Shown piece by piece: positions 20,601 through 57,607 of a stretch of DNA of 64,000 bases. How positions within the stretch are numbered: position 1 is the first letter of the stretch; each line of letters opens with the position of its first letter. This DNA is from an uncultured bacterium. GTDB lineage: Bacteria; Verrucomicrobiota; Kiritimatiellia; RFP12; UBA1067. The stretch covers positions 11,091 to 75,090 of the forward strand of contig CADCGZ010000001.1 of assembly GCA_902801025.1 (NCBI GenBank). The letters are read 5' to 3'. A program made the translations under genes and the position numbers. The notes below the pieces were generated by a model that saw nothing but the letters and a program-made list of their open reading frames with translations, had not been told where the DNA came from and searched no databases.

Positions 20601-23600
20601 CGTGGGGCTATGCCAACTACATCGGCACCGCCCATCTGTCGATCTACACCCCGCGTGACGTAACGGTGACCGACGAGCTCTACCTGACTGGCGAGCCGCC
20701 GAAGGTCGTGATCTTCATCGAGGACACCGACATCAACCGCAACGAGATTCCCGACTGCCTTGAAGACGCGGACGTTAGCTCGTCCTCTGCCGCCTCCGGC
20801 GACACGGACCGCGACGGCCTTCTCGACGAGGAAGAGCCGAGCTACGCCACCGAGTCGACAATCTGGGATACCGACGGCGACGGCATGCCCGACGGATGGG
20901 AAGTCAAGTTCGCCGACCTCGACCCGAACTTCAACGACGCAGTCGAGGCGGCAGAAGGCGACGTGATGGCCTTTGTCAAGCAGGACTGCACGATCGTGAC
21001 GGTTAGGAACACCGACGGCTCCGATGCCGTCAACTACATCCTGAAGGAAGGCCAGTTGCCGCCTGTCAGGGGAGACTCCATCGACGGGTACTCGCTCTAC
21101 GTTCCGTACGACTACCCCGTCGTCACGAGCAACGGCGTCGAGAGCTGCTACGGACGCGGCGCCGAGGTGCAGCTCAAGGCGGCGGCCGGCACGACGAACC
21201 GCGTCATCGACGTCTCGTCTGGCAAGGTCGTGCTTGTCCACTGGCAGGTGTACGACGAGTTCGGCTTCAATCCTCGGACGGCGAACCCAGTCGCCTTCGC
21301 CAACGGAACCGCCGTCAACACCAAGGAGTTCACGGCGCTCGACAAGTATCTGGTCATCCGCTACCTCGAGGCGCTTGGGCTTTGTAGCGAGGACGAGGTC
21401 AATGTCAAGGGCCAGTGGGCGCAGTATTCGCTCAGGCCGTTCGACAGCGACAACGATCTCGACGGCATTGCGGACGGCTGGGAGCTCTACGTGATGTTCG
21501 GCCATGGCGGCGCTCAGGAACTTTCGATGGAGCCGAGCCCGAAGGTCATCAGCCCGTGGGTCTTCGACGACAGGTCGATGGATCACGACGGCGACAAGCT
21601 CGCGGACGTCCATGAGTACGACCGCGGCAACTACCCGACCGATCCCTGGGACGTGGACAGCGACGGAGACGGCGTAACCGACTACTTCGCCTGGAAGTAC
21701 CATCTCAAGGGCACCGACGGCGTCAAGGACTTCGACGGAGACGGCCTCTCCAACTACGTCGAGTATCTGCTCGCCGAAGTGTTCTCGATAGCCGAATTCT
21801 CGCCGGACGACGCCTTCAGCGTGAACCCGAACGTTTCCGACTACTTCTATCGCCTCAACGAGCTCTATGTCGGCGAGATCTTCACGGATCACGATCGCGT
21901 CTGGGACGTCTGGGAGTCTGGATACTTCGCCAAGGAGGACGATGTCTCGCCGTATGTCTATGACGAAATGCTCGATCCCGACGGCGACGGGTGGTCGAAC
22001 TACTCCGAGTTCCAGGCCGGCACTGCGCCGACGAAGCTTGGCTCTCTCAGCGTCGACGCGATCCAGATGGACGAGTACCCGGTGCCGACGATCGAGCTCA
22101 AGCTCTCCTACAACGGCAACCAGTCCGTCGGCGACAAGGCAGTCGTCGTCAAGGCGTGGAGCGACCCGAAGCTCGTGACCATTCCCGACGCCGTCTGGAC
22201 GCTTGGCGGGCAGGGCAACGTCTCGGTCACCGAGAACGGCAACTCCAACATAGTGACCGGCGTCAAGTACTTCGGCATGAACCCGATGCGCGAGATGCTC
22301 GTCCACCTCTCGCCCGGTAGCGTCGTCCCCGGATCGGTCAAGTTCGAGTTCAAGGATCTTGCCTGGGTGCTCTACAACGAGCTTACGGAGCAAGGCTACC
22401 TCAACGACCCGGTGACCGCTCTCTGGGAGGGCGGAATCATCGACCAGCAGCGCAACGACAACTCCGGACTTGGCGACATCGTCAGCCAGGACGAAACGAC
22501 CAAGTCGCTCGGCACTATTGACTACGCGACGGGCGAGATGAAGGTAGACTTCGCCGCGTTCTCGGAATACTTCGCCATCGTCGGCGACATTTCCGGGCGA
22601 GTCACGGGCAACGGCTGGCTCTCGATCTACAACCTGCAGAAGAGCTATGTCCGCGTCAACTGGCAGTCGAAGCTGATAGCCGGCAGCACGGTCACGACGT
22701 ACTACCTCTCCGAGGCCGACAAGCGTTCTGCCTCCAACAACTCGCTTGGCCACGTCAAGGAGGGTCTGAACACGTTTGTCGCGTTCTACGATCTCGACGG
22801 CGACGGCATGTACACGGCGGGTGAGCCGTACGGCTGCGCGGTCGGCGTCGACGTTGGCTGGAACTATGCCCGCGCCGAGATCGAACTGACCGACACGCAT
22901 CCGGTCTCTGCCCGTATCTGCTGCATCACAGGCGCGGCCGGCGGCGCCGCGGCGGCCGGCTCGACAGGCGGCGGATCTTCCGACAGCACGCTCGGCCAAA
23001 GCGACCGTAAAGTCCTCTGGGGAACCGAGCATGGCGACATTCCCCCGGAGATGCTTCTCGTGAGCCAGGAAACCGGTGGCAAGTATATGCACATCCGCGT
23101 CGTCCGTACGCTGATCGACGGCAAGGACTGCACGCTGTACAACGTGCCCGCAAGGGTCGTCCTCGACAAGGAGTATCTCAGCGTCGACAGCGTACGCTAC
23201 CTCACCGAGGCCGACTTCCTTGCGAACGGAGCGCTTGACATCGACTGGCAGGACCTTGCCAACGACCTCAGCAAGGCCAACGTCAACGGCCTCGCGATTT
23301 CGAACGTGACCTATCGCATTGTCATGGGCGAAGGCGACGTCTCGAACTCCGCGACGAACAACTGCGTCGGCGCGTTCAATCGCTGGTTCGACTCGCTGTC
23401 CGTCTACAATGCCTCGAAGCCGATCCTCCTTGACGACGACCAAATGATTACCGCCGTCTCGCCGACGTTCAAGTGGGCGATTCCGAACGGGCTTGGCACC
23501 TATACGGCGTTCCGCATCGAGATTACCGGCGATGGCTTTGCCTGGGATTCCGGGTTCCAGAGGATGCCGCCGCGCATCATGGATCCAGGCAAGGACTACA

Positions 23601-39085: not shown

Positions 39086-42000
39086 ATGAAGAAGATCCTT
39101 GCATTGATCGCTTCGGCGTGGACCGCGCTCGCGGTTGGCGCCGCCGTTCAGCTGACAGCGTCAGTCTATGACGACGATACAGGCGGAACCTACACGGGAA
39201 GCGGGGTTTTCGTGGAGGTGACATATTCATGGTGGCAGGGCGAGCGACAGGAGACGGGGGTTGACGATGTATCTGTCACGATAGGCGAATACAACAGCGC
39301 GAGCTACGCTATTGTCCGCGGTTGCATCACGAACGAGAACATCGACCGCGACAAGTGCAAGTGGGAAGTCGTCAGCGACAGTTCCAATCTCGGCTTTGCA
39401 GAGGATGCCAATGGCGCGGACCTTGCGGCTGGATATCTCACCAATCGCGTAGTTGGCGTGCGTGCGGACGGGACCGGAACGTATGGCAAGGCGGCGATAG
39501 TCCTGCATGTCGCGCGGCGGCACTGCACGTTGACGTACAACGCAAACGGCGGCAATGCCTCCGGACTGCCTGGCGCCGTCGAGATTGTCAGCGGCGTATC
39601 GACGCGGCTTACATCTGTGGTTCCTACGCGTTCTGGCTATGCGTTTGGGGGATGGTCGAAGTCCGCTACCAGCATTTCGGCAATGTACAGCCCTGGGGCT
39701 TCGGCGACGTTCTCGGAAGACACGACGCTTTATGCAGTTTGGGTCGCCAACGACTACTCGGTTGCCTTCAACGCCAATGGCGGCACGGGTACAATGGCTA
39801 CGCAGGCGATGACCTATGGGACGCCTACAAGTCTTTCCATCAACGCGTTCACGCGGCCTGGATATGCGTTTGCAGGGTGGTCGTTGACGGCAGACGGCGA
39901 GGTCGCATACACCGACGGGGCCGCAGTTACCGGAATCGCGACTGGTTTAGGCGAGACAGTCATGCTCTATGCCGTCTGGACCCCCGAGGAATATCTGCTG
40001 ACGGTAGATCCAAATGGCGGCGTCTATAAAGGGAGTTCGGAGACAACGGCCTTGTCGCCATCGATCAAGTATGACACGAAGCTGTGGAACAACATTGGCG
40101 CAGCGACTCGGACCGGCTATGCGCTCAGGGGATATTACGCCGACCGCGAAGGCGAGACGCGCGTATACGATGAAAAGGGCAAGAATGTCGCTGCTGGCGG
40201 CTATTGGTCTGCGGCGTATTCGAATGGCGTCTGGAGATGTCTGGGCGACCTGAAGGTCTATGCGCTGTGGTTGCCTGTCGTCTACAAGGTTTCCTTCAAC
40301 GCCAATGGTGGCAATGGCACGATGCCGGCGCAGCAGCTGACTTATGACGCGAAAACCGCGCTGACTTTGAATGCCTTTACCCGCACGGGGTTTGCTTTCG
40401 CCGGCTGGGCGCAGTCCGCCGATGCGGACAAGGCGAGCTACGCCGATGGTGCGGAAGTCCTGAACCTGGCCGACACTGCCAATGCGACTGTCGCGCTCTA
40501 TGCCGTCTGGGAGGCGAGTCGCTACTATGTCGCCTTTGCCGCGAACGGCGGCAAGGGAACGATGAACGCGCAGAACGCGACTTATGGAGTCGAGACCGAC
40601 CTTGAAACAAACGCATTTACAAGGGTGGGGTATGCATTCGGTGGCTGGGCAAAGACGCCAGGCGGGGCCGCTGTCTATGCTGACGGAGCGTCCGTTTCAA
40701 ATCTGACGGACGTCGCCGACGCTACCAACACTCTATATGCCGTGTGGAAGGCCAATGACTATTCCGTCGCCTTTTACGCGAACGGCGGCACGGGGAAGAT
40801 GGATCCGCAGAATGCGACTTACGGGAAGGCGCTCGTCCTTGAGCCCAATACCTTCAGCCGGACGGGTTACGAGTTTGGTGGATGGAAGGCGACGGACGGG
40901 TCGATATACGTAGACGGCGCGACCGTCTCTAACTTGACGACGATCGCCGGCGCCGCAGCTCCGCTCTATGCAGTCTGGACTCCAAAATCGTACGACCTTT
41001 CGTTTGATGCTGACGGCGGCACAGGCGAACTCGCCCCCCGTACGGTTTCCTACGACTCCGCGTATGGCGATTTGCCGACGCCGACTCGTCCTGGCTACGA
41101 TTTCGTCGGATGGTTTGACGAGTCCGGCAAGGAGGTTACGAAGGATACGCGTGCAAAGTCGACGAGCGCAGGGACATTGAAGGCCCGCTGGGCATCGATC
41201 GCCTACAACGTAGTCTTCGACGCGAATGGCGGTGAGGGGTGGAAGGAACCGTTCGAGGCAATCTGCCGCTACGACGAGACGCTCACGCTGCCGGACGAGA
41301 CCTTCGTGCGCGCGGGCTATACATTAGACGGATGGGATTGCGGCGGAACCAATTATGTCTGCGGCGCCATCGTGTCCAACCTGACGACGGCGGCAGGCGG
41401 CCGCGTCACATTTGCCGCGCAATGGAAGCCGGTTGTCTACAATGTCGTCTTCGACGGAAACGGCGGAACATGTGAAACCAATTCGGCTTCGTCCGTCACG
41501 AATGTAGTGACATACGGCGAGGAGCTTGAAGTGCCGGCGTTTGTCCGCCTCGGCCGCGTTCTCAACGGATGGAATTGCGCGGACGCAGCCTATCCTACCA
41601 ACGCCGTAGTGTCCAACTTGACGGCGACGGCTGGCGGGACAGTGAAGATGAGGGCCAATTGGAATCTTGGCCCCAACGATTTGTCGGAGGCGCTGGATAT
41701 TGACAACCTTGTGTTTGAGAACGACGGCGGAGCGTGGACTGTCCGAGATGATGCCGCCGCCGTGAGCGGCACATGCATCGCCGTGACGGGAGACGGCGTA
41801 ACGAATGAAGTCGCCCTTGCGACGGAGACAGACAGTGGCGGTACGATTAGCTTCTGCTGGAAGTTTGCCAGCGTAGATTCCACATCGGCAGCGTTTGGGT
41901 TTAGACTTTACGATTCTACGGAGGGCAAGACCCTCTGGTCTACAAACTATTCTCGGGACACGGCTTCGACAAGTCCGTTTTACGCGGATTATTCGCCTCA

Positions 42001-44572
42001 TTGGGAGCCGTTTTCCACCAACATTGTTGCGGATGGCATTCATAAGCTTCAATGGGAAATAACGGAATCGCATTCCGGCACCGACGACGAAGGCATAATG
42101 CTTGACCATGTGACATGGGAGCCTGCGGGTGGTGCAGCCGGCATTGCCGCAGTGGAAATCCCCGTTGCGGTCCCCGGTCTTGTCTACGACGGCACTAAAA
42201 AGATCGGCGTTGACGAGAATGCGGCCTATACGCTTGTCGGTAATGTCGCGACAAACGCGGACGGATATCTCGCGACTGCGACGCTGAACAACAAGGCCGC
42301 AAGCGTCTGGGCAGACGGCACGACGGACGACAGGGAGATCCCGTGGCGAATCGCTACCAAGGTCATAGATCTTAGCGGCGTTGCGTTTGCGGATGCATCG
42401 TGGAAGTTCGACGGCAAATCCAAGAGTATCAATGCCTCCGGCGTGCCCGCTGGTGTAGAGGTGACCTACGATGGCAATAATCGAACAGAGGTTGGCGAAT
42501 ACACGGTGACAGCGTGGTTCAAGAGCACTTCCACTGGAAATCTGCTGACGAACATGACGGCTACGCTCACGATAGAGGCGCTGAGCGTCGGCGAGCCATC
42601 AGCCGTTGCGGGACTCGTCTACGACGGCACGGCGAAGACTGGCGTTGTCGAAAGTGTCGGTTACACGCTTGCCGAGAACGTTGCGACGGCCGCAGGCGAT
42701 TATGTCGCGACGGCAACGCTTGACGCCGGATATGTCTGGTCCGACAACACGACTGGACCGAAGGAGATTTCGTGGTCGATTGCGCGCGCTACATACGACA
42801 TGGGCGACGTGTTGTTTGAAGACGGGACGTTTGAGTTCGACGGCACGAATCTGTATCTTGCCGTGGAGGGAGATCTTCCCGATGGCGTTGACGTCTACTA
42901 CCTGTACAACGGGAAGTCCGGCGTCGGCTCTTATACGGTCATTGCCAGGTTCACGGCATCCGATGCCGTCAACTACGAGCCGATTCCAGATCTTGCGGCC
43001 ACGCTGACTATCGTGCTCCCTCCGACGAAGATTGAGGTGCCGACGGCCGTGTCGGGGCTTGTCTACGACGGTGCGGCGCAGATCGGCGTCCTTGAAGGCG
43101 TTGGATACGCCCTTGCCGGGAACGTCGAGACGAACGCGGGCTCGCATGCCGCTACCGCGACGCTGGAGGACGGGTATGTCTGGGCTGACGGCACGACGGT
43201 TGCGCAGACAATCCACTGGTCTATTGCCAAGGCAACATACGACATGAGCGGGGTGTCGTTCGCGAGCAAGACGTTTGAGGCCGATGGCACGAAAAAATCT
43301 ATTGCCATTACGGGAACGCTTCCTTCTGGCGTGAAGGTGTCTTATGTTGGCAACGGCCAGACCGAGCCCGGGACATACACGGTGACGGCGAAATTCACGG
43401 GTGACGCGAACAACTACAATTCGATTTCAGATAAAAAGGCCACACTGACCATAACGAAGAAGTCTGATCCTGTCCCGCCAGGCCCAGGCCCTGGGCCAGA
43501 ACCCGATCCTGATCCAGTGGACGAGACGCCCGATCTGTATCCGAGCGGAGTCGCGGTGCTTGGCGCATTCACGGCCGAGAAGGCAGAGACCTACAACGGC
43601 TGGCTTAAGGATGATGCCGAGCGAGTCGTCGCATTGCTGACAGTGAAGACGACAGCGGCAAAATCTGGCAAGCAGACTAAGTCGACGATCACAGTGACGC
43701 CTGTCAATGGAAAGAAGTACACAAAGAAAACGTCTTTCGATCCAGGGGGGAATCCGACCGACGAATTTGGCATCGTCTACGGCTCGCGTGGGCTCCTTGG
43801 CACATTTGGCGGTTATTCCGTCGAGGCCGGTGTAGATGTCTACAAATCCAAGATTTCCGAGGTAAAGGCCCTTGCTGCGAATATTCCAGTTGCGACGCAT
43901 ACGTTCTCCGTCGACACTGGGAACGGCATGGCGGTGTTCTCGGCCGTGATTGCCAAGACTGGCAAGACGAAAGTCCAGGGATATCTTGAAGACGGCGCAA
44001 AGATATCGGTCTACACTACCGGTGCGCTTGGGGAAGAATACTTTGCCGTCCCTGTCGTTTCGCCAAAAGCGGCGACGCGGTGTGGGTTTGTCCTCTGGTT
44101 CCCCCTTGACGGCGGTTCGCCGACACTCGCAAACTTCTACGATTCGAACTGGACGGCTTCGCTGTCTGGTGGATCATACGCCCTGGCCAACGGTGAGCAT
44201 GTCTTTGACTTCGAGGAGCCGGACTTCCGCAATTATCTCGCTTCAGTCGACGGCTTTGCCGTTGCGCCCGTTGGAGCCGTGTTTACCGTTAAGCGCGGCA
44301 AATGGGACGCCGGCAAGACGGTCGGCCGTCTCAAGGTTATCGATGGCGCACCGGCTGTCACCGGAACTTCGTCGCCGTCGAATCTGTCCGCGCTTAAGCT
44401 GACGTATACTGCGAAGTCGGGGCTTGTGAAGGGCTCGTTCAAGCTGTACTATATGGATGGCAAGCGGCTTAAGAATGACACTGTGACGGTTACGGGCGTT
44501 GTTGTCGACGGCAAGCTATTCGGAAGTGGCACAATCAAGAAGCTCGGCTCCTTTGCCGTAACGGCGGAATGA
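39086..44572 (+). CDS. large surface protein (1828 aa): ~10 Listeria-Bacteroides (InlB B / Flg_new) repeats, then YDG-containing MBG-like repeat pairs, a Pro-rich linker and a C-terminal domain
   Basis: GGAGG RBS at 39075-39079. Signal peptide [19 protein letters not shown]. Repeats of the type [24 protein letters not shown]...LYAVW. Repeated VxGLVYDGTxKxGV...ATLTI units. Linker [19 protein letters not shown]. Confidence 0.9.
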
Positions 44573-48662: not shown

Positions 48663-48752
48663 GGAGGGTTGGCGGAGTGGTTGAACGCGGCGGTCTTGAA
48701 AACCGTTGAGGATGCAAGTCCTCCGGGGGTTCGAATCCCTCACCCTCCGCCA
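48663..48752 (+). tRNA. tRNA-Ser (anticodon UGA), CCA encoded
   Basis: Acceptor GGAGGGT/ACCCTCC. Anticodon loop CTTGAAA on stem GCGGT/ACCGT. Long variable arm GAGGATGCAAGTCCTCC. T-arm GGGGGTTCGAATCCCTC. Confidence 0.9.
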
Positions 48753-48785
48753 CTTTGGAGTGACTTTTAAAAAAGGAGACAAAAA

Positions 48786-49949
48786 ATGAAGAAGACCGTC
48801 ATCGTCAACGCGCACGTCGTTTCCCCCGGCGTCGACATCGAGAACGCCACGATATTCGTCGAGGGCAAGAAGATAAAGAAGGTCGTCAAGGGCTCCAAGC
48901 CCGTCAAGTCCGACGCGAACACGACCGTCGTCGACGTTCGCGGGCAGTACGTGATGCCTGGCTTCATCGACGTCCACACCCACGGTGCGCTCGGCTACGA
49001 TTTCTGCGACGCCGACCCCAAGGCGGTCTTCGAGTTCGCGAAGGCGAAACTCCAGGAAGGCGTGACGACCGTTCTCCCGACCACGCTCACCGTCTCCAAC
49101 GGCGAGCTCAAGGCAGCGGCGAAAAACGCCAAGGCCTACGCCGACGCGGGCATGCCCTATGCGAAGGTTCCCGGCATCCACCTCGAGGGCCCGTTCATCA
49201 ACGTCAAGTGCTGCGGCGCGCAGAACCCGAAGTTCGTCCGCAGGCCCGACATCAAGGAAGTGAAGGAGATCGCGAAGGTCTATCCCGTGAAGCTCATCTC
49301 CTATGCCGTCGAGACCGAGGGCGGCGACAAGTTTGCGAAGGAGTGCTTCAAGGCCGGCGTCGTTCCGAGCTGCGGCCACACGGGCGCCAAGTTCGCCGAC
49401 CTCAAGAAGGCGTACAAGAACGGCCTCCGCCACATGACGCATTTCTGCAACCAGATGACGCCGCTCCACCACCGCGAGATCGGCATGGTCGGCGCGGGCT
49501 TTCTCGTCGAGGACCTCAACACCGAGGTCATCTGCGACAAGATCCACCTTTGCCCCGACATGCTCAACCTCATCTTCACGCGTCGTAGTCTCGCGCACAT
49601 CCAGATGATCACCGACTCGCTCCGCTGCTCGCACTGCAAGGACGGCTACGCGTTTACGATGGGCGGCCTCGAGGTCAAGCTCGAGAACGGCGAGGCGCGT
49701 CTCGTCAAGGGCGGCAACCTCGCGGGCTCGACTCTCTGGATGGGCATGGGCCTCAAGAACGTCCACGACGTCACCGGCATACCGCTCAAGGACCTCGTCC
49801 GCACGACCTCGTGGAACCAGGCCATCGAGCTCGGCTGGGGCAAGAAGCTCGGCAAGGTCGAGAAGGGGTTCATAGCCGATCTCGTCGTGATCAATCCGCG
49901 CAGCTGGAAGCCGTCGGCCGTCTTCATTGACGGCGAACAGCGCATTTGA
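48786..49949 (+). CDS. nagA: N-acetylglucosamine-6-phosphate deacetylase
   Basis: 387 aa. AAGGAGA RBS 8 nt upstream. The GFIDVHTHG metal motif and the overall amidohydrolase/NagA pattern (HLEGPF, GHT.A) are present. Confidence 0.9.
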   Translation: MKKTVIVNAHVVSPGVDIENATIFVEGKKIKKVVKGSKPVKSDANTTVVDVRGQYVMPGFIDVHTHGALGYDFCDADPKAVFEFAKAKLQEGVTTVLPTTLTVSNGELKAAAKNAKAYADAGMPYAKVPGIHLEGPFINVKCCGAQNPKFVRRPDIKEVKEIAKVYPVKLISYAVETEGGDKFAKECFKAGVVPSCGHTGAKFADLKKAYKNGLRHMTHFCNQMTPLHHREIGMVGAGFLVEDLNTEVICDKIHLCPDMLNLIFTRRSLAHIQMITDSLRCSHCKDGYAFTMGGLEVKLENGEARLVKGGNLAGSTLWMGMGLKNVHDVTGIPLKDLVRTTSWNQAIELGWGKKLGKVEKGFIADLVVINPRSWKPSAVFIDGEQRI

Positions 49950-49971
49950 TACAATACGCGCCGAACGATTT

Positions 49972-50062
49972 GGAGAGATGGCCGAGTGGCTGAAGGCAAC
50001 GGTTTGCTAAATCGTCGTACGGGTTAATTTCCGTACCGAGGGTTCGAATCCCTCTCTCTCCG
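49972..50062 (+). tRNA. tRNA-Ser (anticodon GCU), CCA not encoded
   Basis: Acceptor GGAGAGA/TCTCTCC. Anticodon loop TTGCTAA on stem ACGGT/ATCGT. Long variable arm. T-arm GAGGGTTCGAATCCCTC. Preceded by TGATACAAT (49947-49955). Confidence 0.9.
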
Positions 50063-50151
50063 CGCGTCGGTGCTGCCTGACGCCGCTTGGCCCCGACGCG
50101 GAGCTGCCGCTCGGCCAGCCCAACGTCTTCAAGCGACCCTATCCGACGAGG

Positions 50152-51381
50152 ATGGGGCAGCTTGGGCCGCTCTTCTCGTGCGTGCCCTCGATGCAGAACT
50201 TCCCGCGCCAGGTGAACGCAGGCGAGAACCAGGACCTCTACTTCGCGACGCAGCTCGCGTTCGACGCGCTCGCCGACGCGGGGCTTCGCCCGCACTCGCC
50301 GACTTCCGTAAAGGGCAGCGTGCGCGTCGGCTACGCGCCGCCGTTCAACGCCTCGACGGTGAACTGGCTCCAGCATACGGCGTTCCTCGACCAGACGATG
50401 GACATCATTCGCCGCTTCTTGCCGCATGCGCCCGAGGATTCGCTCGGCGTCGTGAAGGAGAAGCTTGTGGAGTCCCTTCCCGCGCCGAACGCGTCTTCCT
50501 TCCTTCTCGGCACTGGCTACCGCTTCGCGTCGTGGATTGCGCGCGAGTGTTCCTTTGCGGGCGTGGCGACGACGATGGACGCGGGGCTTCTAACCGGCGC
50601 TGCGACTTTGCAGGATGCGATGGCCGACCTCGTTTCGGGGCAGGCAGACGTCGCCCTCGCGGGCGCGCTCACGCCGCCGATTCCTCGCGCCTACCTCGAG
50701 GGGCTCTCGGGCGAGGTGCTTTTTTCGACGCGCACGGAGCTCTATCCCTTCGCACAGGATCAGGACGGCACGATTCCCGGCGAGGGCGGCGCGTTCTTCG
50801 TCTTGAAGCGTCGCGCCGACGCGCTGCGCGACCATGATCGCATCTATGCCAACATCCGTTCCGTCGCGATAGGCCACAACCCCGAGGACGATCCGTCTGC
50901 CATTTTCGCCCAGGCGACGAAGGACAGCGGCATCCCCGTCAAGACAATCGGGCTCATAGAGGCGGATGGCACTGGAATTGCGGTCTCCGAGCAGCGCGAG
51001 ATCGACGCCGTCCACCGGCTCTGGGGCGAACACCGTCCCGGCGGGCCGCTTGTCGCGATGGGGTCCGTGAAGGGCAACATAGGACACACGCTCCGCGCGG
51101 CCATGGCCGCAGGCGTCGCGAAGGCCGCGCTTGCGCTTTTCCACCGCGTCCTGCCGCCACAGATTTCGCCGGAGCGGCCGCACGAGTCGCTTGCAAACCT
51201 CTCGTCGAGCGTCTATCTCCTCGACGAGGCGCGTCCGTGGATAACGGGCGACAGCTCGAGCCCGCGCCGCGCCGTAGTGCTTGGCGCGAACTTTGACGCG
51301 ACCGATCCCATTGGCAATGCCTCGAAGGGCGGTCGCGCCGCCGCAATCGTGCTTGAAGAGGAACCGGAGGACCGGCTGTGA
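50152..51381 (+). CDS. ketosynthase-like protein, N-terminally short, with catalytic Cys and first His substituted (predicted inactive)
   Basis: 409 aa. GVATTMDAGLLTGAATLQDAMADLVSGQADVALAGA aligns without gaps to the KS motif G.AVTVDTACSSSLVALHLA.Q.LR.GECD.ALAGG, giving Cys->Leu. EADGTG replaces EAHGTG (His->Asp). KGNIGHT is retained. The C-terminal AAAIVLEE is KS-like. Confidence 0.8.
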   Translation: MGQLGPLFSCVPSMQNFPRQVNAGENQDLYFATQLAFDALADAGLRPHSPTSVKGSVRVGYAPPFNASTVNWLQHTAFLDQTMDIIRRFLPHAPEDSLGVVKEKLVESLPAPNASSFLLGTGYRFASWIARECSFAGVATTMDAGLLTGAATLQDAMADLVSGQADVALAGALTPPIPRAYLEGLSGEVLFSTRTELYPFAQDQDGTIPGEGGAFFVLKRRADALRDHDRIYANIRSVAIGHNPEDDPSAIFAQATKDSGIPVKTIGLIEADGTGIAVSEQREIDAVHRLWGEHRPGGPLVAMGSVKGNIGHTLRAAMAAGVAKAALALFHRVLPPQISPERPHESLANLSSSVYLLDEARPWITGDSSSPRRAVVLGANFDATDPIGNASKGGRAAAIVLEEEPEDRL

Positions 51382-54300
51382 CGGCGGAATTCGGAGCGAT
51401 GGGAAGGGTTGAGCTCGTCCTTGTCTCGGCGGCGGACGACGAGGCGCTTGTCGCCGAGATCTCCCGCCTTGCGGCGTTTCTCGACCGCATTCCCGACGCG
51501 CCTCTCGCAGACGTCGCCTACACTTGCTCCCTTACGCGCGGCGACGCCGTTCTCGCGCTTGTAGTCTCAAGCGTCAACGAGCTGAGGGTGCGGCTTCTCT
51601 CCGCGCGTTCGCGCATTGCGTCGGGCACGGCGAAGATACGCGACAAGAGCGGCACTTACTACTTCCGCGAGCATCTCGTCGGCGAAGGAACTGGGAAGCT
51701 CGCGTTCGTCTACCCGGGCGTGATGAGCTACTATCCCGACATGCTCCGCGACATCGCGATCCTCCATCCGGAGTGCCGCACGCCGTTTGACGAGCTCGAA
51801 GAGGCGCTTTCCGACAATCCCGACTTCACGCCGTCAAGCTTCATCTTCCCGCCCGCTCCCTACTACCGCCACGACGCCGACATCTTCAGCTCCGGCGCGT
51901 ATGCGCAGGCGTTCGTCGCGTCGTTCGCCGGCTGCGTCGCCCTGTCTCGGCTCCTTGGCCGCCTCGGCGTCCAGCCCGACGGCGTCGTCGGCTGCGTCGG
52001 CGGCGATCTTGCCGCGGTTATGCGCTCCGGTGCGGCTGGCATTGACAACCCTCGGCCGGTCAGGGTGCGCGCAATCCGCGACATCTACAAGATCGTCGAC
52101 AAGGCGGTGGACCATTCGGGGCTTCCCAAGACGTCGATGATCTCCGTCCTCCTCAAGCACGAGGGCGAGGCCGACGAAGTGGTGAAGGGCTTTCCCGCAG
52201 ACAAGGTCGCGCTTGCGCTCGACTTCTCTCCGCGCCAGCGCACCTACGCCATCGCGCCAGACTACGAGGAGACGGCGCTAAAGGCGTTTGCCGACGCAGG
52301 CATCCGCACGATGAAGCTCGCGCTCGAGCGGCCCTTCAACACGTCGAAGTGCAAGCCGATAGTCGCGGGCGTCAAGAAGTTCGCCGGCGACTGGATGAAG
52401 CACGAGTCGGTGTGCGACGTCTATTCTTGCGCCCAGGCCGAGAAGCTTCCGAGAAAGGCGCGTCCCGCGCGCAACGACACCGCCGAGCGCTGGGCGCAGC
52501 CGGTGAGGTTCCGCGAGACAATTCTCAAGATGTACGCCGACGGCTACCGCGTGTTCCTCGAGGTCGGTCCGCGCGGGCTGATGACTACGGCGGTCTCCGA
52601 GACGTTGAAGGGCTCCGACTTCGCGGCGATTGCGCTCAACTCGATACACCGTCGCGGAGTCCTGCAGGCGTGCCACGCGCTCGGGCAGCTTGCAGCGTAC
52701 GGCGTGAAATTCGACTTCTCGAAGTCGTTCGAGCGCCGTCGCGCGAGAAAGCTCGACTTTGACTCCGCCCTGTCGCTCGAAGTGCGCCGCGACGCGGAGA
52801 TGCGCCTTTCGAGCGCGTTCCCGCGGCTTACGCTCCTTGGCGACGAGTCCTTCCTGCAGGGCGCTAACTTCCTCGTAGAGCCGACGGGCCGCGGCGCAAA
52901 GGCCGCGCAGAGGGCGGCGGCGGCCGCGGCGAAGGCCCGCCGCCAGAGGCAGTTCGACTTCGGCGCCGCGAACCCGCTTGTCTCAGACGCGGACGTCCTT
53001 GCGCAGAGCCCGGGCGTCTCGATTGAGATCTCGAAGACTTTTCGCATTTCCGATGCGCCGTTCCTCGCGGACTTTGCGCTCGGCGCGAGCCAGCTTTCCT
53101 ATTCCGACCCGAACCTCAAGGGACTCGTCATGCTGTCGATTCCCGTTGCCGCAGAGATGATGGCAGAGGTCGCGCGGATGCTCGTTCCGAACAGGACGCT
53201 CGTTTCAATCGAGAATCTGGGCTGCAGGCGCATGGTCGCGTTTACCGGCGGCGAACTGAAGCTTTTCATAAAGGCCGAGCGCGTCGCCTCTGGAGACGCA
53301 AAACTTGCGGCCGTCAAGGTTCAGATACGCGACGACTCGCCGAACTCCGCCTATACGTGGCCCGTCATGGACGGCGTGTTTGTCATGGCCGACGGCCACG
53401 CCCCGGCGGTGCCGGCGTCTGCGCCTCCGATGTTCAAGCCGCGCAGCGTCCACTGGTCGGGCCGCGACATATATCCCTCTCGGCTCTGCTACGGCCGGCG
53501 GCTTAGGGGCATCCGCTTCGTCGAGTCGTGGAGCGAGTCTGGGCTCGACTACGAGGTCGAGGTTCCGTCGCTTTCCGACGCCGTAGTCTTCACGCGCTTC
53601 CCGCTGTGGGTCGTGAATCCGATTCTCCTCGGCGCCATCACGAGCGGCTTCGCGCTTTGGCGCAGCCACGAGAAGTTCGTCGGCGCCTTCTCCTTCCCGT
53701 TCCGCCTGCGGAAGCTCGCGCTTCACGGCGCCCAGCCACACGAGGGCACGCGGCTCAAGTGCTATCTGCGGCTCACTGGCGTGACGCCGAAGTCGCACGT
53801 CTGCGACATCACGGCCACGGACGGCAACGGTGTCGCCATAATGTCCCTCTCCGGCTGGGAGGAGCTCACCGAGCGCGTTCCCGCGGAGTACCGCGAACTA
53901 GTCCTCCAGCCGGCCAACGCGTTTCTCACACGCCGTGTCTCGACCGACATGCTCGGAGACCCCGCGACCGACGTCGCGAGCGCGTTCATCACCGACGTCC
54001 CGTATCCGATCTTCGAGCGGAACGAGGAGCTTTGGCTGAAGACGCTCTCCAACGTCGTCCTCGGCTCGCAGGAGCGCGAAGAGTTTCGCAACATGCCGGG
54101 CTCCACGTCTCGTCGCACCGAGTGGCTGTTCGGGCGCGTCGCCGCGAAGGAGGCCGTCCGGCGGTATTTGAAGGACTTCCACCAGGCGAGGTGGAGCGAC
54201 GCCGACATACAGATCTGGCGCGACGACGCGGGCAAGCCCCACGCGCTCGGCGAATGGGGCGACCGCCTTTCCTCGAAGATCGACATAGCGATCGCGCACA

Positions 54301-54704
54301 CGGCGCAGTTCATCATCGCGCTCGCGGCGGCGAACGCGCGCGTCGGCGTAGATGTCGAATCCGTCGCCCGCGACCTTTCCGAGGAGTTCACGGCGGGCGT
54401 GTTTGTTCCCGAGGAACTCGAGTTGGCGGCGAATGCGGCGAATGCGGCGCAGGCGATAATCCGCTTCTGGTGCGCGAAGGAGGCCGTCTCCAAGGCGCTC
54501 GGCACCGGCATTCGCTACAGTCCGCGCGAGATGCACGTCACCGAATACCAGCCGGACACCGGCCGGCTCGCCGTCCGCTTGGAGGGCGCGTGGCTCGACG
54601 CCTTCAAGAAGTTCCGCGGCCGCGACATCGACGTCGTGTCGCGCGTGATGCGCGACCATGCGCTCGCCTTCTGTTTCATTCCAATGACGCTGTTCGATGA
54701 GTAG
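51378..54704 (+). CDS. multidomain PKS-like protein: KS-AT linker + acyltransferase-like (Ser-less) + double-hotdog DH-like (His-less) + C-terminal 4'-phosphopantetheinyl transferase domain
   Basis: 1108 aa, with GTGA start/stop overlap. FVYPGVMSYYPDM replaces FPGQGSQ. GVVGCVGGDLAA replaces GHSxGE. RVFLEVGPRG is AT-like. FLADFALG..LSIPVAAEMMAEVA resembles the DH HxxxGxxxxP region but has no His. PPTase motifs GKPHAL, VGVDVE and FWCAKEAVSKALGTG are intact. I found no carrier-protein GxDS motif. Confidence 0.8.
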   Translation: MTAEFGAMGRVELVLVSAADDEALVAEISRLAAFLDRIPDAPLADVAYTCSLTRGDAVLALVVSSVNELRVRLLSARSRIASGTAKIRDKSGTYYFREHLVGEGTGKLAFVYPGVMSYYPDMLRDIAILHPECRTPFDELEEALSDNPDFTPSSFIFPPAPYYRHDADIFSSGAYAQAFVASFAGCVALSRLLGRLGVQPDGVVGCVGGDLAAVMRSGAAGIDNPRPVRVRAIRDIYKIVDKAVDHSGLPKTSMISVLLKHEGEADEVVKGFPADKVALALDFSPRQRTYAIAPDYEETALKAFADAGIRTMKLALERPFNTSKCKPIVAGVKKFAGDWMKHESVCDVYSCAQAEKLPRKARPARNDTAERWAQPVRFRETILKMYADGYRVFLEVGPRGLMTTAVSETLKGSDFAAIALNSIHRRGVLQACHALGQLAAYGVKFDFSKSFERRRARKLDFDSALSLEVRRDAEMRLSSAFPRLTLLGDESFLQGANFLVEPTGRGAKAAQRAAAAAAKARRQRQFDFGAANPLVSDADVLAQSPGVSIEISKTFRISDAPFLADFALGASQLSYSDPNLKGLVMLSIPVAAEMMAEVARMLVPNRTLVSIENLGCRRMVAFTGGELKLFIKAERVASGDAKLAAVKVQIRDDSPNSAYTWPVMDGVFVMADGHAPAVPASAPPMFKPRSVHWSGRDIYPSRLCYGRRLRGIRFVESWSESGLDYEVEVPSLSDAVVFTRFPLWVVNPILLGAITSGFALWRSHEKFVGAFSFPFRLRKLALHGAQPHEGTRLKCYLRLTGVTPKSHVCDITATDGNGVAIMSLSGWEELTERVPAEYRELVLQPANAFLTRRVSTDMLGDPATDVASAFITDVPYPIFERNEELWLKTLSNVVLGSQEREEFRNMPGSTSRRTEWLFGRVAAKEAVRRYLKDFHQARWSDADIQIWRDDAGKPHALGEWGDRLSSKIDIAIAHTAQFIIALAAANARVGVDVESVARDLSEEFTAGVFVPEELELAANAANAAQAIIRFWCAKEAVSKALGTGIRYSPREMHVTEYQPDTGRLAVRLEGAWLDAFKKFRGRDIDVVSRVMRDHALAFCFIPMTLFDE

Positions 54705-55467
54705 CAGGGATCCGTTTGGTGAGTTGGCGCCGCGCCGTTCGCTGCCGCCGGGGCTTAAGCAGAGGTTTCCCGACCGCGTGCTCGTGATGACGACGGACCG
54801 CTGCTTCGGCGCTTGCACGCACTGCACCAGGAAGTTCATTCTCGGGAAGTCGCCTGTCGTTGACTCGGCCGAGCGGCTTGCCGCCTGCGTCGACTACGTG
54901 AAGCGCCATCCGAAAGTGCGCGATGTGCTTCTTTCCGGTGGCGACGTCCTCACGCTTTCCGATGCGAAAGTGGCGAAGTTCGTCGAGGCGTTTGCGAAGC
55001 TCGACCAGATCGAGGTCGTTCGCGTCTGCACTCGCGCGCCGGTGTCGAATCCTGCGCGGATTACCGTTCGTCTCGCGCGGCTCTTGCGCCGCGTCGGGCG
55101 CGGCAAGGTTTGGGCGAATGTCCACGTCAACACGGCAGAAGAAGCGCGGGTCGCGCGCGAGGCGTCGGCGCGGCTTGTCGACTGCGGTATTCCCGTCTCG
55201 TCGCAGACGGTGCTTCTCCGTGGCGTGAACGACACGCCGCGCAAGATGCTATCTCTTCTCCGTGCGCTTTCCGCCGCGAGGATTCGGCCGTACTATGTCT
55301 TTCAGTGCGATCCGGTGGAAGGGCTTGTCGAGCGTTTCGGCGTTCCGCTCTCCCGCGCGAAACAAATCGAGGCTTACTGCGCCGAGCGCATTGGCGGCCT
55401 TGCGCTCCCGCGCTTCGTCGCCGACCTCCCCTCCGCCAAGCGTAAAACACCCCTCGACCTCCTCTAA
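54697..55467 (+). CDS. minimal KamA-family radical SAM protein (lysine-2,3-aminomutase-like core only, 256 aa)
   Basis: ATGAGTAG overlap with the upstream stop. FPDRVLVMTTDRCFGACTHCTRK carries the CX3CX2C motif. DVLLSGGD, VLLRGVND, RPYYVFQCD and FVADLPSAKRKTPL parallel KamA. The protein lacks the ~100-aa N- and C-terminal extensions of KamA/EpmB. Confidence 0.85.
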   Translation: MSSRDPFGELAPRRSLPPGLKQRFPDRVLVMTTDRCFGACTHCTRKFILGKSPVVDSAERLAACVDYVKRHPKVRDVLLSGGDVLTLSDAKVAKFVEAFAKLDQIEVVRVCTRAPVSNPARITVRLARLLRRVGRGKVWANVHVNTAEEARVAREASARLVDCGIPVSSQTVLLRGVNDTPRKMLSLLRALSAARIRPYYVFQCDPVEGLVERFGVPLSRAKQIEAYCAERIGGLALPRFVADLPSAKRKTPLDLL

Positions 55468-55745: not shown

Positions 55746-55775
55746 TGTGAATCGATGAGAAACGCACTACAAGTA

Positions 55776-55784
55776 TGGTATAAT
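55776..55784 (+). promoter_or_regulatory. extended -10 promoter TGGTATAAT, 9 nt upstream of the parE-like ATG
   Basis: TATGGTATAATATCTGCTCTATG has the same geometry as the tkt promoter TATGGTATAATATACCCCCTATG. Confidence 0.5.
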
Positions 55785-55793
55785 ATCTGCTCT

Positions 55794-57607
55794 ATGGCTA
55801 CAGACTACGGTGATAAAAGCATAAAGACTCTCGATCCGGTGACGCACATCCGCCTGCGTCCCGGCATGTACGTCGGCGAACCCGGCACGGGCGCGATGTA
55901 CCATGACTGCATCTACATCCTGATGAAGGAAGTGATCGACAACGCGATCGACGCGGGCGAAGTGTCCGTGCGCGACTACGGGCGCGGCATTCCGCTTGGC
56001 AAGGTCGTCGACTGCGTCTCGCAGATGAATACCGGCGGCAAGTACGACAACGAGAACTACCAGTTCTCCGCCGGTATGAACGGCGTCGGCACGAAGGCCG
56101 TGAACGCGCTTTCCGAGTTCTTCGAGGTGCGCTCGTTCCGCGACGGCGAGTTCTCCGAGGCGTATTTCGAGGAAGGGCGACTAAAGTCCAAGAAGCGCGG
56201 CAAGCTCAAGACGAACGAGCATTCGGGAACGTACATCCGCTACAAGCCCGACCTCAAGGTTCTGAAGAAGTTCAAGGTGCGCGAGGAACACGTCCTCAGG
56301 CGCATGAAGATGTACTGCTACGTGAACGCGGGGCTGACGATAGTCCTGAACGGCCAGGAGATCTGCTCCGACCGCGGGCTTGCCGACCTCATCGCTGACG
56401 AGGCGCAGTTCGAGAAGCTCTACCAGCCGTTCCACGTGAAGACGAAGTCGCTCGAGATAATCTTCACGCACACCAACCGCTTCGGCGAGGAGTACCACAC
56501 GTTCGTGAACGGCCAGTACACGACCGACGGCGGCACGCACCTCACGGCGTTCAAGGAGGCGCTCACCAAGGCGCTCAACGACTACGACCCGAAGAAGAAG
56601 TTTGACGGCGACGACATCCGCGACGGTCTTCTCGGCGCGGTGTCGGTGAGGATCATGAACCCCGTCTTCGAGGGGCAGACGAAGATCAAGTTCGTGATGA
56701 ACGACATCAAGTCCGAGCTCGTCCAGCAGATGAAGAAGGAGATCGAGGCGGCGCTCCACCGCTCGCCCTCCGAAGCCGACAAGCTCATCTCCAAGGTCGA
56801 GGAGACGGGGAAGATACGCTCGCAGCTCAACACGATAAAGAAGCAGGCGCGCGAGAGGTCAAGCAGGCGCGCGAGAGGTCGCAGGCCGTCTCGGTGCGCG
56901 TTCCGCAGCTCAAGGACTGCAAGAACCACCTGAAGCTCGACAAGGTCGACAAGAAGACCGGGAAGGCCGAGGGCGAGGACACGATGATCTTCCTCACTGA
57001 GGGCCAGTCGGCGGGCGGCACGCTCGGCGGCGCGCGCGACGCGATGAACCAGGCGGTCTTCTTCCTGCGCGGCAAGTGCCTCAACACGTGCGGGCTCAAC
57101 AAGGACGTTCTCTACAAGAACGAGGAGTTTTTCAACCTCATCAAGACGCTCGACATCGAGGACACGCTCGAGCACCTTCGCTACGGGAAGATCATCTTCG
57201 CGACGGATGCCGATGTCGACGGACTCCACATCAGGATGCTCCTCACGACGTTCTTCATGCGCTTCTACCGCCAGCTCATCCTCGACGGGCGCGTCTTCAT
57301 CCTCGAAACGCCCCTCTTCCGCGTCAGGAACAAGAAGGAGCACTACTTCTGCTACACAGACGAGGAGCGCGAGGACGCGATAAAGAAGTGCGGGCGCGGC
57401 TGCGAGATCACGCGCTTCAAGGGACTTGGCGAGATCGACAAGGAGGACTTCAGGGGCTTCATCGGCGAGGAGATGCGCCTTACGCCCGTGACTTGCTCCG
57501 ACGACACAGACGTCGAGAAGACGATCAAGTTCTACATGGGCGCCAACACGCCCGAGCGCAAGGACTACATCATGGAGTCTCTCGTCTGCGACGCCGCCGA
57601 GTTCTGA
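55794..57607 (+). pseudogene. parE: type IIA topoisomerase subunit B (ParE/GyrB family, Bacteroidetes/PVC-type topo IV B-like) disrupted by a 20-bp tandem duplication
   Basis: The GHKL region (EVIDNAID, DYGRGIP, NTGGKYD, GMNGVGTKAVNALS) and transducer lie in frame 3 up to ~56880. Toprim (FLTEGQSAGG, ATDADVDGLHI) and the tail (RFKGLGEI) lie in frame 2 from 56894. Deleting one copy of 56841-56860 restores a single ~597-aa ORF that reads ..KKQARERSQAVSVRVPQLKDCKNH... Confidence 0.8.
56841..56880 (+). repeat. perfect 20-bp tandem duplication AAGCAGGCGCGCGAGAGGTC x2
   Basis: 56841-56860 is identical to 56861-56880. Twenty nt is +2 in reading frame, which is exactly the observed frame change. Confidence 0.97.

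Follow-up and report, generated by a model that had tools for sequence, protein, structure and literature searches.

Why would a genome retain a set of polyketide synthase (PKS) folds whose catalytic motifs have been lost? The question is raised by a stretch of 64,000 nucleotides (the window) from an uncultured member of the Kiritimatiellia (assembly GCA_902801025.1, contig CADCGZ010000001.1, positions 11,091 to 75,090), in which three consecutive open reading frames (ORFs) overlap at their ends. ORF1 is a ketosynthase (KS)-like protein. ORF2 combines an acyltransferase (AT)-like and a dehydratase (DH)-like domain with a C-terminal phosphopantetheinyl transferase (PPTase), and ORF3 is a minimal KamA-type radical S-adenosylmethionine (SAM) enzyme. 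The sequence GTGA at 51378-51381 joins the ORF1 stop to the ORF2 start, and ATGAGTAG at 54697-54704 joins the ORF2 stop to the ORF3 start. The ORF1/ORF2 gene pair is conserved as a pseudoenzyme system; it is not a gene cluster in decay.

ORF1 matches the N- and C-terminal ketoacyl-synt families of Pfam with 49.4 and 72.5 bits (cut-off 20.8) and thus carries a thiolase-fold KS domain. Alignment to solved structures places its 'tmDAGLLTGa' on the active-site motif 'DTACSSG', so that the nucleophilic Cys is replaced by Leu (by Met in the related locus L012), and 'EADGTG' stands in place of 'EAHGTG', with Asp for the first catalytic His. The second His, in KGNIGH, is retained. The Cys-His-His triad is thus broken.

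In ORF2 the AT fold is recognisable from Acyl_transf_1 (33.0 bits, cut-off 32.7) and from an AlphaFold2 (AF2) model with a predicted local distance difference test (pLDDT) score of 80-90 over the domain; Foldseek aligns it to isolated AT domains with template modelling (TM) scores of 0.7-0.8, normalised to the target. Neither residue of the Ser/His pair is present. Against solved structures 'YPGVMSYYPDM' aligns with 'FPGQGSHWQGM' (GQGSQ to GVMSY), 'VVGCVGGDLAA' aligns with 'VVGHSQGEIAA', which removes the nucleophilic Ser of GHSxG (G[CF][VA]GG in relatives), and the HAFH motif reads RPFN. The DH-like domain scores 23.4 bits with PS-DH, just below the cut-off of 23.7, and the pLDDT there is only 60-80. 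A motif table shows 'DFALG' where active relatives have 'DHTLG' (DHxxG), replacing the catalytic His by Phe, and LLGA for LLDA, which removes the second catalytic residue, Asp. Foldseek aligns the ORF2 model over ~880 columns to KS-AT-DH PKS modules. The model was built from 16 sequences, has an overall pLDDT of 64 with a poor N-terminal half of the PPTase, and supports fold-level statements only.

Carrier domains are missing as well. Pfam gives zero PP-binding matches in ORF1, ORF2 and ORF3, and neither Pfam nor the conserved columns reveal a remnant of an acyl carrier protein (ACP) in the ORF2 linker at residues 441-545, where some active relatives carry their ACP (LGIDSI) and where the Ser of 'DFDS' is not conserved. 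The PPTase matches ACPS with 64.6 bits (cut-off 25), TIGR00556 (pantethn_trn) with 55.3 (cut-off 45.35) and also HetI among the NCBIfam models. Its motifs GKP, IAHT, GVDVE and FWCAKEAVSKALG are intact in ORF2 and invariant across 45 sequences and in distant clades, as in Sfp-type enzymes. By these aligned motifs, the C-terminal Sfp-type PPTase can be identified as the sole invariant catalytic centre left in ORF1/ORF2.

The initial annotation had already noted the overlapping stop and start signals that join the trio, the KS replacements MDAGLLTG (Cys to Leu) and EADGTG, the AT replacements YPGVMSY and GCVGG, the loss of the DH His in LADFALG, the intact PPTase motifs and the absence of a carrier-protein motif from all three frames. 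All of these stand, and profile searches with alignment of the active-site columns restore no Cys, Ser or His at the replaced KS, AT and DH positions. The change of HAFH to RPFN and the loss of the second DH Asp had gone unnoted.

The three genes are under selection. Pairwise NG86 comparison of the window with seven relatives gives ratios of nonsynonymous to synonymous substitution rates (dN/dS) of 0.07-0.11 for ORF1, 0.09-0.11 for ORF2 and 0.10-0.16 for ORF3, and each sub-region of ORF2 (linker plus AT, middle linker, DH-like and PPTase) falls within 0.07-0.14. Including the window, all 91 ORF2, 76 ORF1 and 62 ORF3 matches align in one piece and without a stop over >90% of the query, apart from contig ends and one active relative. 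Mean pairwise identity over the 45 sequences is 0.70 for the AT-like domain and 0.69 for the DH-like domain, compared with 0.77 for the PPTase. The non-canonical motifs that replace the catalytic ones are themselves conserved across these sequences.

A profile search of 1.84 billion representative proteins finds 1203 clusters at E <= 1e-30 and places the pair in a family with the architecture KS / AT-(ACP)-DH-PPTase. Some members are split (a KS of 467 aa plus a protein of 1100-1390 aa) and others are fused (1550-1990 aa). Most retain DAACASS, GHSxGE, YHT, DHT and LLDA, often with LGIDSI. Such active relatives have no ketoreductase (KR) within the polypeptide and sit in biosynthetic clusters with KR, ACP and tailoring genes; none has a KamA neighbour. 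Locus L085 (7919-19410) has the order KR, KS, AT-DH-PPTase, a 99-aa ACP, a PF01663 phosphodiesterase-family protein and esterases (alpha/beta hydrolases). In L084 (1997-25649) a PfaA-like synthase precedes the gene, which is followed by an ACP, two sulfotransferases and two CMAS-type methyltransferases. The cluster type consisting of KR, KS, AT-(ACP)-DH-PPTase, small ACP, PF01663 protein and hydrolases appears to be uncharacterised, and no name or characterisation of the KS/AT-(ACP)-DH-PPTase family was found in curated families or other sources; for ten distant relatives, a look-up of their clusters gave hardly any names.

Intermediates between the active members and the window clade are still alive. 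P0253, P0254, P0259 and P0264 keep PGEGSQY and the His of HAFH but no longer have the AT Ser or the DH His. Next to P0254, in L090, the KS partner is still Cys-His-His. A further intermediate group has Ala or Ser for the KS Cys and GFxGGD as the AT motif. In the window clade all KS, AT and DH catalytic motifs are gone, and the first KS His with them. Throughout this series the PPTase motifs stay the same. The motifs along it mark ORF1/ORF2 as descended from a split, PfaA-like iterative synthase of polyketides or secondary lipids, catalytically degenerate and yet under selection.

In species-representative genomes a scan returned 366 matching stretches, and counts out of 80 loci refer to the best 80, which are full length and 56-94% identical. 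Nearly all of these 80 are labelled as metagenome-assembled genomes of Kiritimatiellae, Verrucomicrobia or Lentisphaerae from rumen and gut. More than 596 ORF2 homologues occur in a large protein collection, and among 120 listed nearly all are ~1100 aa long. ORF1 directly precedes ORF2 in 69 of the 80 loci. Beyond the trio, conserved neighbours are limited to nagA and a tRNA-Ser in a subset of loci, and none encodes an adenylating enzyme, an ACP, a thioesterase or a tailoring enzyme. The three intermediate-clade representatives examined (P0243, P0247 and P0254) have the pair alone among housekeeping genes, with no ORF3. Gut and rumen Kiritimatiellia have the pair as a core unit, set among housekeeping genes. 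Pair-bearing contigs L022, L039, L055, L066 and L073 are filed in bins of Barnesiella intestinihominis, Gemmiger sp., Anaerovoracaceae, Muribaculaceae and Faecalibacterium prausnitzii, labels that are most likely due to binning contamination.

ORF3 belongs to the radical SAM superfamily, with 43.1 bits for PF04055 (cut-off 29.5) and the motifs CFGACTHC and LLSGGD. It aligns to residues 104-340 of lysine 2,3-aminomutase (2A5H) with 39% identity over the core, and its AF2 model (pLDDT 87.7), with the partial TIM barrel of the superfamily, has 2A5H as the top Foldseek match (TM 0.84). In 2A5H numbering it keeps CxxxCxxC, GGD, R112, R116, R134, D293, D330 and K337. Across 29 homologues there is no variation in Lys337, which binds pyridoxal phosphate (PLP), in Arg134, which binds the carboxylate, or in Asp293 and Asp330, the ligands of the epsilon-amine. 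ORF3 lacks the ~100 N-terminal residues and the C-terminal Zn domain with its Cys triad, and Thr replaces the Zn ligand C268. NCBIfam scores are all below their cut-offs (TIGR00238 168.7 against 199.2; AblA, the best match, 209.5 against 525.4; EpmB 148.1 against 369.3), and none of the curated KamA-type models, including the Glu and Arg equivalogs, claims it. The initial annotation had described ORF3 as the intact 256-aa core of KamA only, a description that the 2A5H alignment bears out. ORF3 has all active-site residues of a 2,3-aminomutase of the lysine type, carried by a minimal core.

Two ORF3 subtypes occur, a short one of ~256 aa, to which that of the window belongs, and a long one of ~295 aa (L022, L029, L030, L032-L036 and others), which is extended at its N-terminus by a conserved 'FPEYACxYxxxLAxxSxRFAxQVYD' and has MCD or TCD instead of QCD at D293. 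In the deeper-clade locus L087 (1970-2791) panB, which encodes ketopantoate hydroxymethyltransferase of the pantothenate/coenzyme A (CoA) pathway, directly precedes the pseudo-KS/AT-DH-PPTase pair, a single case that may be due to chance. Because of this neighbour, ORF3 was considered as an alanine 2,3-aminomutase providing beta-alanine for pantothenate and CoA. The idea was rejected as the leading one since both Asp ligands of the lysine epsilon-amine are invariant.

ORF3 lies directly downstream of ORF2 in 56 of the 80 loci, or about three quarters of those with enough sequence to judge, over a range of 58-94% ORF2 identity. Among the 38 loci in which this could be measured, 29 have ORF3 starting before the ORF2 stop is complete (median -11 nt), in short and long subtypes alike. 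In other genomes a 79%-identical ORF3 is found between an M50 peptidase gene and an exosortase EpsH/EpsI gene. A link of ORF3 to the pair is likely, though not an obligate one. The initial annotation had suggested a pseudo-PKS scaffold presenting a PPTase together with an aminomutase, and had proposed conservation of the trio with dN/dS below 1 as a check. For ORF1/ORF2 this is supported, the pair being conserved across the Kiritimatiellia and in deeper clades, and dN/dS between the window and its relatives is 0.07-0.16 for the genes of the trio; the third gene, adjoining in only 56 of 80 loci, has to be demoted to a frequent, coupled but inconstant partner.

What might such a pair do? In the reading that we prefer, and to which we give about an even chance, it is a pseudo-PKS scaffold with one live activity, phosphopantetheinylation in trans, and a 2,3-aminomutase of the lysine type is usually co-translated with it. 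The ORF2 PPTase would act as a holo-carrier-protein synthase, transferring 4′-phosphopantetheine from CoA to an ACP encoded elsewhere. The simplest target would be the ACP of fatty acid synthesis. The dead KS/AT/DH body would have been retained as a dimeric scaffold and docking platform for carrier proteins and would no longer act as a synthase. ORF3 probably forms beta-lysine or a close analogue and may take the ORF1/ORF2 scaffold as its partner. The canonical KamA oligomer is reportedly built through the N- and C-terminal domains, according to the paper on the 2A5H structure, and ORF3 may lean on the scaffold because these domains have been lost. In a more ambitious version, which we regard as rather improbable, the dead body, its docking surfaces for carrier proteins and pantetheine-linked substrates still in place, serves as an adaptor that holds the live PPTase and recruits the minimal aminomutase, so that one complex couples phosphopantetheinylation with the formation of a beta-amino acid. 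If true, the aminomutase could for example act on a carrier-tethered substrate, or the complex could modify proteins or lipids in a new way found only in Kiritimatiellia.

Several observations weigh against the scaffold reading. ORF1 does not adjoin ORF2 in at least 8 of the 80 loci, nor in L081-L083. ORF3 is missing beside the pair in about a quarter of the loci and in deeper clades, and lies elsewhere in some genomes. No ACP gene is found in any of the 91 degenerate-clade loci. Searches of the window and 94 loci (1.3 Mb, loci only) by tblastn with sequences of E. coli and B. subtilis AcpS and E. coli AcpP match only the ORF2 PPTase and the L084 ACP, the AcpS matches falling on both PPTase halves across loci. 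Some 1350 residues of dead domains held at a dN/dS of ~0.1 are much for a mere scaffold. The AT-like pocket has clade-specific invariant motifs (RHDADIFSSGAYA, YPGVMSYYPDM and RPFNT), which could mark a new binding or catalytic site.

The last objection comes from the window itself. In relatives ORF1 has a normal KS N-terminus, 'IAIVGMSCRFAG'. The window has suffered a deletion of 122 bp compared with its five closest relatives, with the junction at 50063/50064 (cf. L001:6567-6688). The deletion takes out a TATAAT-like box, the GTG start of ORF1 and codons 1-27, including 'IAIVGMSCRFAG'. Its left edge is the 3′ end of tRNA-Ser(gct), whose encoded CCA is gone. Thirty homologous codons persist in frame but have lost their start; translation could first begin at the ATG at 50152. 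The initial annotation had taken ORF1 as a 409-aa frame; its coordinates hold, and the truncation at the 5′ end had been overlooked. The deletion may be a true variant of this strain or an artefact of the assembly. The remaining ORF1 codons have a dN/dS that is not relaxed. With the start and 27 codons lost, ORF1/ORF2 may not be fully functional in this strain or assembly.

Among the other explanations the most durable concerns ORF3 alone and is compatible with the scaffold reading. The aminomutase may be a housekeeping lysine 2,3-aminomutase of the whole clade, producing for example beta-lysine for another pathway, and may owe its position to an ancestral operon without any functional relation to the pair. 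We consider this a serious possibility, somewhat on the lesser side of even. The copy between the peptidase and exosortase genes points this way, as do the deeper degenerate-clade loci that hold the pair without ORF3 and the active relatives without a KamA neighbour. Against it stand the adjacency maintained over the whole range of ORF2 identity and the stop/start overlap kept in both subtypes; the loss of the domains that build the KamA oligomer would also suggest a need for some other partner.

The main rival to a scaffold is neofunctionalisation. The KS-, AT- or DH-like pockets would have gained non-canonical catalysis or ligand binding. Acting together with the PPTase and the KamA-type enzyme, they would produce or modify a product derived from a beta-amino acid or a carrier-bound intermediate. 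The clade-specific invariant motifs, which lie at former active-site positions, allow for this, and the dead domains are constrained as strongly as many enzymes. C133, H165, D166, D168, C351 and H424 are invariant, and an Arg (R229) is kept where the canonical Arg that binds the carboxylate would lie, or close by, as counted from the former Ser. The coupling to ORF3 is conserved. However, no replacement nucleophile or base is found at the aligned positions of the lost Cys, Ser and His, the adenylating, carrier, thioesterase and tailoring genes that might be expected nearby are not conserved, and ORF3 is dispensable as a neighbour. On balance this explanation is unlikely, though well short of negligible.

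A PKS that is still active with unusual catalytic residues is far less probable. The folds appear complete, and the second KS His and the Arg near the canonical AT position are kept, but the residue at the nucleophile position is Leu or Met in the KS and Val or Ala in the AT, and that at the position of the DH base is Phe, Tyr or Ser, varying between close relatives, and neither the genes nor their surroundings contain an ACP or a KR. Weakest of all is a decaying PKS island, which the initial annotation had offered as its alternative and in which the genes would be pseudogenes heading for loss: every synthase catalytic residue is indeed gone and ORF1 of the window is cut short, but dN/dS values around 0.1, the lack of any match with an in-frame stop or other frame disruption in relatives, the conserved replacements in 45 sequences, the housekeeping neighbours and the presence of the unit in hundreds of species refute it for the family and leave it next to no probability.

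Table 1. Features of the ORF1-ORF3 locus in the window
Feature	Position	Strand	Size or residues	Basis
ORF1, KS-like pseudoenzyme	50152..51381	+	409 aa here, 467 aa in relatives	Pfam/NCBIfam, alignment
ORF2, KS-AT linker/AT-like/linker/DH-like/Sfp-type PPTase	51378..54704	+	1108 aa	Pfam/NCBIfam, AF2 and Foldseek
ORF3, minimal KamA-type radical-SAM/PLP enzyme	54697..55467	+	256 aa	Pfam/NCBIfam, 2A5H alignment, AF2 and Foldseek
ORF2 KS-AT linker domain	51405..51677	+	residues ~10-100	Pfam CurL-like_PKS_C, RhiE-like_linker
ORF2 AT-like pseudo-domain	51678..52697	+	residues ~101-440	Pfam, alignment, pLDDT 80-90
ORF2 post-AT Ala/Arg-rich linker	52698..53012	+	residues ~441-545	no PP-binding match
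ORF2 DH-like pseudo-domain, probable double-hotdog	53013..53882	+	residues ~546-835	PS-DH 23.4 bits, motif table, Foldseek
ORF2 Sfp-type PPTase, two AcpS-like halves	54033..54701	+	residues ~886-1108	ACPS 64.6 bits, TIGR00556, HetI, invariant columns
tRNA-Ser(gct)	49972..50063	+		ARAGORN
Remnant of ORF1 N-terminal coding region, in frame, no start codon, ARRCCLTPLGPDAELPLGQPNVFKRPYPTR	50062..50151	+		translations of window and L001

The surroundings of the trio in the window are of a housekeeping kind. Upstream are ackA, pta, a SIS-CBS protein, pilM, a secretin, rho, uvrA, recA and nagA, and downstream a paralogue of the GyrB N-terminus, rnc, tkt and murJ. The trio is immediately preceded by tRNA-Ser(tga), nagA (TIGR00221, 253 bits, above cut-off) and tRNA-Ser(gct) at 48663-50063, and nagA with tRNA-Ser(gct) recurs upstream of ORF1 in ~15-20 related loci. 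A promoter scan marks a promoter-like site at 49927-49955, upstream of tRNA-Ser(gct). The downstream gene at 55755-56933 encodes a 392-aa protein whose similarity to GyrB is confined to the ~400 residues of the N-terminus (ATPase and transducer) and scores far below the gyrB cut-offs. It resembles a stand-alone GyrB-N paralogue, and the same gene lies downstream in L001 and L060. Between rho and uvrA, at 39086-44572, is a protein of 1828 aa with at least 8 Listeria-Bacteroides (Flg_new) repeats. Two giant ORFs at 37-8214 and 8651-24769 (2725 aa and 5372 aa) have Laminin_G_3 as their sole recognisable domain and are crossed by very long antisense ORFs; they are probably huge surface proteins and not PKS or nonribosomal peptide synthetase (NRPS) genes. 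A PKS/NRPS island in the window was rejected in view of the housekeeping neighbours and these Laminin_G_3 proteins.

Single inactive PKS domains are familiar, as in KS0, chain-length factors (CLFs) and pseudo-KRs. Here the whole KS-AT-DH set is dead and yet kept at a dN/dS of ~0.1 across hundreds of species of one bacterial class. The family offers a clean natural case of the passage from megasynthase to pseudoenzyme scaffold, in which living intermediates record the stepwise loss, and the pair is a defined protein system for asking what PKS folds do when they do not catalyse. The PPTase is flagged as a probable core PPTase of an abundant and little-studied gut and rumen lineage. ORF3 is the smallest KamA-type aminomutase core met in the analysis and should be useful to radical-SAM enzymology. 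Genome-mining tools would mis-score such loci as PKS clusters.

How does the locus compare with known systems? The initial annotation knew of no described system of this composition, and a literature search for the ORF1/ORF2 pair or for KamA in Kiritimatiellia was likewise blank. It had pointed to the enediyne synthases PKSE. These include SgcE, CalE8 and DynE8, and their domain order is KS-AT-ACP-KR-DH-PPTase. The comparison holds for the architecture, an iterative type I PKS with the PPTase as the last domain after DH. It does not hold for kinship, as the nearest active relatives are those of the PfaA-like KS/AT-(ACP)-DH-PPTase family. In contrast to PKSE, ORF1/ORF2 is split, has neither ACP nor KR and has lost its catalytic residues; PKSE structures are not among its best sequence matches in the PDB and no PKSE-type NCBIfam model matches. 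The PfaA-like proteins (P0397 in L085, P0269, and P0276 in L084) share with it the domain order and the split point (KS of 467 aa plus ~1100 aa). Profile scores of 360-620 bits and matching PPTase motifs support this likeness, and PfaA (TIGR02813) is the best NCBIfam model for the KS-AT part, although below its curated cut-off. These relatives keep the active motifs and have KR, ACP, phosphodiesterase, hydrolase and sulfotransferase genes nearby, all of which the window clade has lost.

Dead KS domains and fused PPTases are both known from active synthases. The CLF of KS-CLF pairs is a Cys-less KS-like partner. In Pseudoalteromonas sp. DS-12 the pfaC-PPTase of a Pfa-type polyunsaturated fatty acid (PUFA) synthase has a PPTase fused behind the DH domains (PMC3098273). 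These systems still have active KS, AT and DH domains, and a live KS is the partner of the dead one, whereas here no live condensing enzyme is left. Within the group of KamA, EpmB and AblA, ORF3 shares fold and active site with KamA from C. subterminale (2A5H), in 256 aa as against 416 aa. The ORF2 PPTase has the two AcpS-like halves and the motifs GKP, xxHS/T, GxDxE and WxxKEAxxK of Sfp, HetI and the PPTase of the fungal fatty acid synthase (FAS) alpha-subunit, the last being its best solved match (4v58). In contrast to these Sfp-type and integrated PPTases, it is fused to a body that has neither an active synthase domain nor a carrier domain in cis.

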